The notes under the pieces are model-generated. The model was not told the DNA's origin, did no database searches, and saw only the letters and a list, made by a program, of their open reading frames with translations. Below, in pieces: positions 1 to 506 of a stretch of 506 nucleotides of DNA. Position numbers and translations under genes: made by a program. Origin of the DNA: Escherichia coli (GTDB taxonomy: Bacteria; Pseudomonadota; Gammaproteobacteria; Enterobacterales; Enterobacteriaceae); assembly GCF_003334255.1 (NCBI RefSeq), contig NZ_QOWU01000230.1. The stretch is one strand, 5' to 3'. Position 1 is the first letter of the stretch. Each line of letters starts with the position of its first letter.

Positions 1-5
1 CAAAT

Positions 6-34
6 GCCTGATGCGCTACGCTTATCAGGCCTAC
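6..34 (+). repeat. REP palindromic unit, Z2-type (copy 1)
   Basis: gcctgatgcgctacgcttatcaggcctac: 7-bp outer stem gcctgat/atcaggc (6-12 with 24-30), small internal mismatch, 2-bp inner stem with 3-nt loop, then the CTAC tail typical of REP. Matches the Z2 PU consensus as I recall it. Confidence 0.85.
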
Positions 35-51
35 AGATTCTTGCGCCATTC

Positions 52-85
52 GTAGGCCGGATAAGGCGTTCACGCCGCATCCGGC
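52..85 (-). repeat. REP palindromic unit, Y-type (copy 1), inverted relative to the Z2 unit
   Basis: The - strand reads gccggatgcggcgtgaacgccttatccggcctac: 7-bp outer stem gccggat/atccggc, 2x2 internal loop, 4-bp inner stem ggcg/cgcc with tgaa loop, CTAC tail. Matches the canonical Y PU / REP consensus as I recall it. Confidence 0.88.
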
Positions 86-98
86 AATGGTGACAAAT

Positions 99-127
99 GC
101 CTGATGCGCTACGCTTATCAGGCCTAC
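99..127 (+). repeat. REP palindromic unit, Z2-type (copy 2)
   Basis: Identical to 6-34, shifted by 93 bp. Confidence 0.85.
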
Positions 128-144
128 AGATTCTTGCGCCATTC

Positions 145-178
145 GTAGGCCGGATAAGGCGTTCACGCCGCATCCGGC
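145..178 (-). repeat. REP palindromic unit, Y-type (copy 2)
   Basis: Identical to 52-85, shifted by 93 bp. Confidence 0.88.
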
Positions 179-191
179 AATGGTGACAAAT

Positions 192-220
192 GCCTGATGC
201 GCTACGCTTATCAGGCCTAC
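192..220 (+). repeat. REP palindromic unit, Z2-type (copy 3)
   Basis: Identical to 6-34, shifted by 186 bp. Confidence 0.85.
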
Positions 221-237
221 AGATTCTTGCGCCATTC

Positions 238-271
238 GTAGGCCGGATAAGGCGTTCACGCCGCATCCGGC
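238..271 (-). repeat. REP palindromic unit, Y-type (copy 3)
   Basis: Identical to 52-85, shifted by 186 bp. Confidence 0.88.
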
Positions 272-284
272 AATGGTGACAAAT

Positions 285-313
285 GCCTGATGCGCTACGC
301 TTATCAGGCCTAC
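285..313 (+). repeat. REP palindromic unit, Z2-type (copy 4)
   Basis: Identical to 6-34, shifted by 279 bp. Confidence 0.85.
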
Positions 314-330
314 AGATTCTTGCGCCATTC

Positions 331-364
331 GTAGGCCGGATAAGGCGTTCACGCCGCATCCGGC
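331..364 (-). repeat. REP palindromic unit, Y-type (copy 4)
   Basis: Identical to 52-85, shifted by 279 bp. Confidence 0.88.
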
Positions 365-377
365 AATGGTGACAAAT

Positions 378-406
378 GCCTGATGCGCTACGCTTATCAG
401 GCCTAC
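378..406 (+). repeat. REP palindromic unit, Z2-type (copy 5)
   Basis: Identical to 6-34, shifted by 372 bp. Confidence 0.85.
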
Positions 407-423
407 AGATTCTTGCGCCATTC

Positions 424-457
424 GTAGGCCGGATAAGGCGTTCACGCCGCATCCGGC
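424..457 (-). repeat. REP palindromic unit, Y-type (copy 5)
   Basis: Identical to 52-85, shifted by 372 bp. Confidence 0.88.
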
Positions 458-470
458 AATGGTGACAAAT

Positions 471-499
471 GCCTGATGCGCTACGCTTATCAGGCCTAC
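471..499 (+). repeat. REP palindromic unit, Z2-type (copy 6; the window ends 7 nt after it, inside the linker)
   Basis: Identical to 6-34, shifted by 465 bp. The sequence stops at 506 within the tail-to-tail linker. Confidence 0.85.
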
Positions 500-506
500 A
501 GATTCT

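Follow-up and report, generated by a model that had tools for sequence, protein, structure and literature searches.

The window, meaning the whole stretch of DNA analysed here (506 nucleotides), is very probably part of the REP array that, in Escherichia coli, separates yahG from yahI and varies in copy number, an assignment that rests on the identity of its repeat unit and linkers with those found at this locus in other strains. Descriptions of REP/BIME arrays date back to the 1980s. The element in the window is of this long-known, ordinary kind, and the K-12 reference already has its locus. The original prediction had called it a recognised enterobacterial element and not a new system, which is borne out by matches in 5,426 of 5,426 complete E. 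coli genomes, the closest loci being REP arrays. What differs from that prediction is the type of one palindromic unit, the class of BIME to which the array belongs, and the weight that can be given to its copy number.

Repeat unit, palindrome types, and BIME class

The window is filled by a single tandem array. Tandem Repeats Finder places it at positions 1–506 with a period of 93, 5.4 copies, 100% matches, 0 indels, and a score of 1012. A script comparing base i with base i+93 found the two to be equal at all window positions, for a total of 5.44 copies. A repeat search of the window returned copies of 227 nucleotides, spaced 93 nucleotides apart and 100% identical throughout. A two-unit pattern of 186 nucleotides has four matches in the window and none in 200 shuffles. 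The features of the array are listed below.

1–506, no strand: tandem array of the 93-bp y/z1 BIME unit, 5.44 perfect copies.
6–34, 99–127, 192–220, 285–313, 378–406, and 471–499, minus strand: z1-type palindromic unit, 29 nucleotides, reading GCCTGATGCGCTACGCTTATCAGGCCTAC on the plus strand, six identical copies.
52–86, 145–179, 238–272, 331–365, and 424–458, plus strand: y-type palindromic unit, 35 nucleotides, GTAGGCCGGATAAGGCGTTCACGCCGCATCCGGCA, five identical copies.
35–51, no strand: 17-nucleotide linker AGATTCTTGCGCCATTC, from the CTAC end of z1 to the GTAG end of y, recurring every 93 nucleotides.
87–98, no strand: 12-nucleotide short linker ATGGTGACAAAT, joining y to z1 at their loop-distal ends, recurring every 93 nucleotides.

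The 29-mer reads GTAGGCCTGATAAGCGTAGCGCATCAGGC on the minus strand and is an iREP on the plus strand. The 35-mer and the 29-mer are inverted relative to each other, with GTAG leading the 35-mer on the plus strand and the 29-mer on the minus strand. The arrangement first described for this DNA, six units plus five for a total of 11, in inverted alternation at a strict 93-bp period, agrees with both the positions and the period tests. Both the z1 and the y unit form imperfect hairpins, interrupted internally by an AA/GC mismatch. Folded as DNA, the hairpins of the two units have energies of −12.2 and −8.1 kcal/mol (z-scores of approximately −4.4), and the best fold of a single 93-nucleotide unit is a long y:z1 hairpin. 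Of the two linkers, the 12-nucleotide ATGGTGACAAAT is the counterpart of the short S-type linker of BIME-2 when aligned with ACGGTGCCGACT of REP325. The 17-nucleotide linker holds, at the z1 end, the junction GGCC↓TACA, which is a published in vitro cleavage site of TnpA_REP (PMC3333891).

The REP types of E. coli MG1655 are y (35 nucleotides), z1 (29 nucleotides), and z2 (37 nucleotides) (Corneloup et al. 2021, PMC8266576). The y REP is marked by a 5’ GTAG, T11, an A12A13/G26C27 mismatch bulge, and G32 (PMC8266576). The unit at 52–86 is 35 nucleotides long and begins with GTAG, and T11, A12A13/G26C27, and G32 are all in place. The unit at 6–34 is, on the minus strand, a GTAG-led palindrome of 29 nucleotides of the GCCTGAT...ATCAGGC type with an AA/GC bulge. 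It has neither the 37-nucleotide length nor the longer central stem-loop of z2, and is 7 nucleotides shorter than the z2 of REP325. The 35-mer is therefore typed as an E. coli y REP, because all y-defining residues occur at the listed positions, and the 29-mer is typed as z1 because of its length of 29 nucleotides in the GTAG-first orientation.

Two alignments agree with this typing. The Rfam naRNA4 model, which represents the Y/Z2 pair of REP325, aligns over its full length to the window only if 7 nucleotides are deleted from the second hairpin’s loop. Two REP325 units of MG1655 are collinear with the window unit from end to end, with a single 7-nucleotide gap at the same loop position. The label Z2, originally given to the 29-mer, was wrong, since the unit has 29 nucleotides as opposed to 37 and shows the 7-nucleotide gap against both the naRNA4 model and REP325.

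In BIME-1, the L linker between a single Y and a single Z1 is long and often contains an IHF site (PMC1187871; PMC3333891). BIME-2 is composed of two to twelve tandem Y and Z2 units with a short S linker, and a BIME that combines Y, Z1, Z2, and linkers in any different way, frequently as a multi-copy array, counts as atypical (PMC1187871; PMC3333891). The short linkers of BIME-2 are S together with s, l, or r. The array in the window has the architecture of BIME-2, namely 5.44 tandem copies in alternating orientation with short linkers of 12 and 17 nucleotides. Its units are y and z1, and not the Y and Z2 of which BIME-2 is composed. It also departs from BIME-1, given its linkers of 12 and 17 nucleotides, its tandem layout, and the IHF consensus WATCAANNNNTTR, which was not found in the window even when one mismatch was allowed. 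Because the BIME-2 composition and the BIME-1 architecture both fail, the tandem y/z1 array is classed, by exclusion under the published definitions, as an atypical BIME with BIME-2 architecture. The high copy number and extragenic location that characterize the REP family are both seen, with a median of 20 places per genome and an intergenic homologous locus. The original description as a BIME-2-type REP cluster is thus retained for the REP/BIME identity and for the BIME-2 architecture, and not for the class, since z1 replaces z2.

A canonical BIME-2 cluster of Y and Z2 units would be expected to carry the properties reported for BIME-2, including high-affinity binding and cleavage by DNA gyrase. 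The tandem multi-copy layout with alternating orientation is consistent with such a cluster, and so are the linkers, which are collinear with those of REP325 and equal in length (17 and 11–12 nucleotides), and the score of 78 bits that the naRNA4 Y/Z2 model attains on the window. However, the TGAT-type unit has the 29 nucleotides of z1, with the 37-nucleotide z2 having 7 extra central bases, and BIME-2 is defined as Y plus Z2, other combinations being atypical. In addition, the literature consulted contained no report of gyrase binding to Y/Z1 tandem arrays. This alternative is considered improbable. The literature on high-affinity gyrase binding and cleavage concerns Y/Z2 arrays only. Since the array is y/z1 and not Y/Z2, these data are not simply transferable to it, and the practical consequence of retyping the unit as z1 (not z2) and the array as an atypical BIME (not BIME-2) is that BIME-2 gyrase data should not be assumed to hold for it.

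Probable location between yahG and yahI, length polymorphism, and copy number

The best full-length matches in the 5,426 complete E. coli genomes all lie between yahG and yahI. These genes are co-directional (yahG to yahI) within one apparent operon, and the minus strand of the window is the sense strand at the homologous locus. The array begins 12 nucleotides past the yahG stop codon, ends 50 nucleotides ahead of the yahI start, and is overlaid by an ORF annotated as “YahH” or “hypothetical protein”. The earlier expectation of convergent neighbours or a position in a 3’ untranslated region was half right, as the genes on either side run in the same direction and the array follows closely on the yahG stop.

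In MG1655, the array has eight units spanning 360 bp, and the two yahG-proximal units are identical to the unit of the window. An exact pattern of 199 nucleotides (2.14 units) also located a metagenome contig (L004) with the same flanks, in which three perfect copies are accompanied by a diverged unit on the yahI side and a near-identical unit on the yahG side. The 199-nucleotide pattern has 0 matches in GTDB species representatives and 0 in IMG/VR viral contigs. A degenerate linker pattern was found in only two species-representative contigs, both at yahG–yahI, one of which starts inside the array.

Matches on plasmids and phages were considered as signs of a mobile-element or phage origin, and both origins were rejected. 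The plasmid matches are either K-12 F-primes, which contain the yahH region of the chromosome, or isolated REPs, and the phage matches are isolated REPs only. A separate observation concerns XL1-Blue, in which the apparent best match is surrounded by scrambled pieces of IS, Rhs, and tRNA sequence and has the appearance of debris left by the assembly.

The length of the array was surveyed using 600 nucleotides of each flank, joined as a single query, in 57 genomes evenly spread down the ranking. Measured from flank to flank, the arrays of these 57 genomes are approximately 34, 81, 91, 185, 268, 360, and 453 bp long. Strain H1827/12 has an array of 546 bp, equal to 12 units. The yahG–yahI array is strongly length-polymorphic between strains, ranging from approximately 34 to 546 bp. 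Multi-copy BIMEs are known to occupy the same loci across isolates with strongly variable length (PMC3333891; PMC1187871), and the strain-variable length at yahG–yahI fits this published variability.

The window corresponds, in reversed orientation, to the whole of the 506-nucleotide contig NMMT01000159.1 (GCA_002467805.1), and an identical contig is recorded in four samples. The contig was identified by an exact match to the frame −2 translation of the window; the frame −1 translation had no exact match, and the cluster look-up had no entry for the frame −2 sequence. Both of its ends lie inside the array, as originally stated, with the window being the entire contig. In this draft assembly it stands as an orphan contig that consists of repeat only, without any unique base. 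Because the contig is repeat-only and the assembler could not span the repeat, neither the copy number of 5.44 nor the perfect homogeneity is reliable. The “11 or more units” first reported accordingly hold as a count within the window, and not as a measurement of copy number. The annotated REP elements of MG1655 have 1–12 units, placing eleven or more at the top of this range and not beyond it. At least 3.2 consecutive perfect copies of the exact unit of the window were found in 0 of the 5,426 complete E. coli genomes. There are two possibilities for the allele that the window implies: it is rare and arose by recent amplification, or the assembler inflated it.

The second of these possibilities, that the element is real and its 5.4 perfect copies are an assembly artefact, is given somewhat less than an even chance. 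The assembler would have unrolled or piled up a repeat loop, and the true array would be shorter or would have diverged end units. This would account for a contig composed entirely of repeat, recorded as the same 506 nucleotides in four samples, and for the 0 of 5,426 complete genomes with a comparable perfect run. The best run elsewhere, in metagenome contig L004, consists of three perfect copies and one near-perfect copy, and a contig of another draft genome (L008) starts within the same array. On the other hand, a perfect array beyond the read or k-mer span gives rise to orphan contigs, so that a long array of homogeneous units would naturally produce such a contig. Alleles with 12 units do exist, and tandem BIME copies at a single locus are well conserved while their number varies between strains (PMC3333891).

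The opposite case, in which the source strain and the three other samples truly carry at least six identical units, would make this the longest and most homogeneous allele seen at yahG–yahI. It would imply very recent amplification by TnpA_REP or slippage, and a heritable and reversible dial for the expression of yahF–yahG relative to yahI–yahJ. This case is judged unlikely. The yahG–yahI array is one that breaks short-read assemblies.

Open frames, naRNA4 matches, and a proposed role in the transcript

Two further features of the window bear on what the array might encode.

1–506, minus strand: two fully open reading frames, not genes (six-frame translation).
55–124, 148–217, 241–310, 334–403, and 427–496, plus strand: match to Rfam naRNA4 (RF02564), 78 bits, as compared with a gathering score of 59.5.

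The two open frames on the minus strand exist because a period of 93 nucleotides equals 31 codons. Their extent over the entire window could be taken to mean that the array codes for a protein (YahH or a hypothetical protein) made of 31-residue repeats, and RefSeq annotates YahH or hypothetical proteins on the array in many genomes. However, open frames are automatic with a period of 31 codons, and the borders and frames of the annotated ORFs depend on the strain, with one or two ORFs of varied size. The only homologues are phantom ORFs of E. coli and Shigella, the close ones without a Pfam domain, and the underlying sequence consists of REP palindromes occurring at a median of 20 places per genome. 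A coding function is hardly credible. The same period of exactly 31 codons explains how the phantom “YahH” and “hypothetical protein” annotations arise.

The RF02564 gathering threshold is passed five times on the plus strand, and the minus strand, at 53.9, falls below it. These matches could suggest that the array encodes nucleoid-associated small RNAs resembling naRNA4, which would bind HU and condense the chromosome, a role reported for REP325 RNAs by Qian et al. 2015 (PMC4550694). The model, however, describes nothing more specific than a y/z REP pair and will score on every pair of this kind. The strand that it matches is also antisense to the yahG–yahI operon, and the scan for sigma-70-like promoter sites found none in the window. 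An array encoding such RNAs is very unlikely, and the naRNA4 matches are taken to reflect similarity between REP pairs, on a strand that is antisense to the yahG–yahI transcript.

The array more likely acts within an mRNA. By analogy with REP325, the yahG–yahI array is a likely mRNA-hairpin array that would protect the 3’ end of yahG and limit read-through into yahI and yahJ. At REP325, the upstream yjdM mRNA is stabilised and the downstream yjdN is attenuated approximately 8–10-fold, in part through a Rho-dependent process (bioRxiv 10.64898/2026.03.23.713779). The same study describes a ladder of truncated transcripts containing the hairpins, reports no measurable compaction of the nucleoid by REP325, and finds the effects of REPs to be context-dependent (bioRxiv 10.64898/2026.03.23.713779). 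According to the summary in PMC12306157, Liang et al. 2015 found that REPs located less than 16 nucleotides from a stop codon lower the translation of the upstream gene.

Judging from REP325 and from classical work on REPs, the array would be co-transcribed in the yahF–yahG–yahI–yahJ message, with the minus strand of the window as the sense strand. The hairpins of this message would block 3’ exonucleases and thereby stabilise the upstream yahG segment. They would also reduce the transcription that continues into yahI and yahJ, with Rho contributing in part; the scan of the window found no site resembling an intrinsic terminator. The first hairpin, located 12 nucleotides past the yahG stop codon, may stall terminating ribosomes.

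Copy number would change when identical 93-bp units slip or recombine unequally, or through TnpA_REP, the REP-associated transposase. Slippage or unequal exchange is the simplest of these routes. TnpA_REP requires GTAG and a stem mismatch and cuts C↓T sites such as GGCC↓TACA (PMC3333891). Every unit of the window contains GTAG, a stem mismatch, an inverted REP, and GGCC↓TACA, and is a predicted substrate of the enzyme. Amplification by TnpA_REP is possible because GTAG, the stem mismatch, and GGCC↓TACA are kept in each unit. If REP arrays are terminator-stabilisers, as is now proposed for REP325, the copy-number alleles of yahG–yahI would provide natural material for the study of dose dependence.

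Comparison with known systems

BIME-1 elements (RIP/RIB elements) contain the same unit types, y and z1, as the window. They differ in being a single pair with a long linker that harbors an IHF site (PMC3333891), whereas the window has linkers of 12 and 17 nucleotides, no IHF consensus, and many tandem copies.

REPINs and the substrates of RAYT (TnpA_REP) resemble the window in being inverted REP doublets with a 5’ GTAG, a stem mismatch, and the CT cleavage motif GGCC↓TACA. In contrast to these, the window has no tnpA_REP gene, and mobility at yahG–yahI is putative.

REP325 is the model BIME-2 and the source of naRNA1–6. It has 12 units between yjdM and yjdN, and likewise consists of tandem inverted REP pairs between co-directional genes. 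Its y unit is identical to that of the window except for one loop base, and its 17-nucleotide linker AAATTCCCGCACCCTCC is collinear with AGATTCTTGCGCCATTC of the window, with 11 of 17 positions identical. The second unit of REP325 is a z2 of 37 nucleotides, giving a period of 100 nucleotides, as opposed to the z1 of 29 nucleotides and the period of 93 nucleotides in the window. The two arrays are also read in opposite orientations. In the sense RNA of yahG–yahI, z1 comes GTAG-first and y is inverted, whereas in that of REP325, y comes GTAG-first. The experimental data belong to REP325 only, and the yahG–yahI array is likened to it by sequence and layout.

The array between yahG and yahI in MG1655 (phantom gene yahH, b0322) has the same y, the same z1, both linkers, and the same 93-bp period as the window. 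Its eight units comprise three variants: a 92-nucleotide end variant, a variant “B” with six substitutions, and the variant “A” of the window. The window, by comparison, has at least 11 units and is composed of variant A only.

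Annotated reading frames over the array

The y/z1 array of 93-bp units is annotated by RefSeq as YahH or as one or two hypothetical proteins, with boundaries that vary from strain to strain. Because the repeat period is exactly 31 codons, two frames remain open at any copy number. The annotations are listed below, with L002, L003, L005, and L009 denoting other database stretches that carry the same array.

RefSeq ORF annotations over the array
Window, 1-506, minus strand: ORF annotation
L002, 4027-4509: ORF annotation
L003, 4119-4415: ORF annotation
L005, 2470-2921: ORF annotation
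L009, 2770-3090: ORF annotation

Copies in other records

A copy of the array lies near the record end in E. coli XL1-Blue (L001 4003-4471; NZ_CP081007.1, 4650681-4651151). It is surrounded by jumbled, truncated IS1, IS2, ISAs1, Rhs, tRNA, and phage fragments, and inverted ISAs1 fragments lie on either side of it. This copy looks like assembly debris added onto the chromosome rather than a genuine second locus.

A 2-unit allele of the array is present at an E. coli-like yahG-yahI locus (L007 8280-8460; CAJYVI010000043.1) on a 116-kb MAG contig labeled “uncultured Pseudocitrobacter sp.” The occurrence of this locus and allele under that label suggests mis-binning or a wrongly labeled Escherichia genome. 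The contig of Escherichia sp. E1V33 (L008 1-305; NZ_RHJI01000008.1) starts inside the yahG-proximal part of the yahG-yahI array, which is independent evidence that short-read assemblies are broken by the repeat.

E. coli-type REP units with 95-96% identity were identified in the database records of Campylobacter phages A11a (MG065691.1, 63832-63932) and A18a (MG065686.1, 110191-110291). Such units are unexpected for this host, and contamination or chimeric assembly is possible. A query joining the yahI-side and yahG-side flanks (600 nt each) found 120 matching places on plasmids. The 203.9-kb E. coli plasmid NZ_CP097727.1 (18118-18668) matches the yahI-side half only, covering 46% of the joined query at 95% identity, and the gene over the match is annotated as a carbamate kinase family protein.

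Folding of the unit and distance from yahG

The best fold of a lone 93-nt unit (window 1-93, both strands) is a single long y:z1 hairpin, resembling a REPIN, rather than two separate REP hairpins. For longer stretches (window 1-186, both strands), folding gives competing long-range pairings. Given both results, the predicted structure of the array in RNA or single-stranded DNA is ambiguous.

Only 12 nt separate the yahG stop codon (in the region L002 4547-4561) from the first palindromic unit, which lies downstream of it. This gap is inside the range of 15 nt or less for which ribosome stalling at REPs has been reported (Liang 2015, as summarized in PMC12306157).
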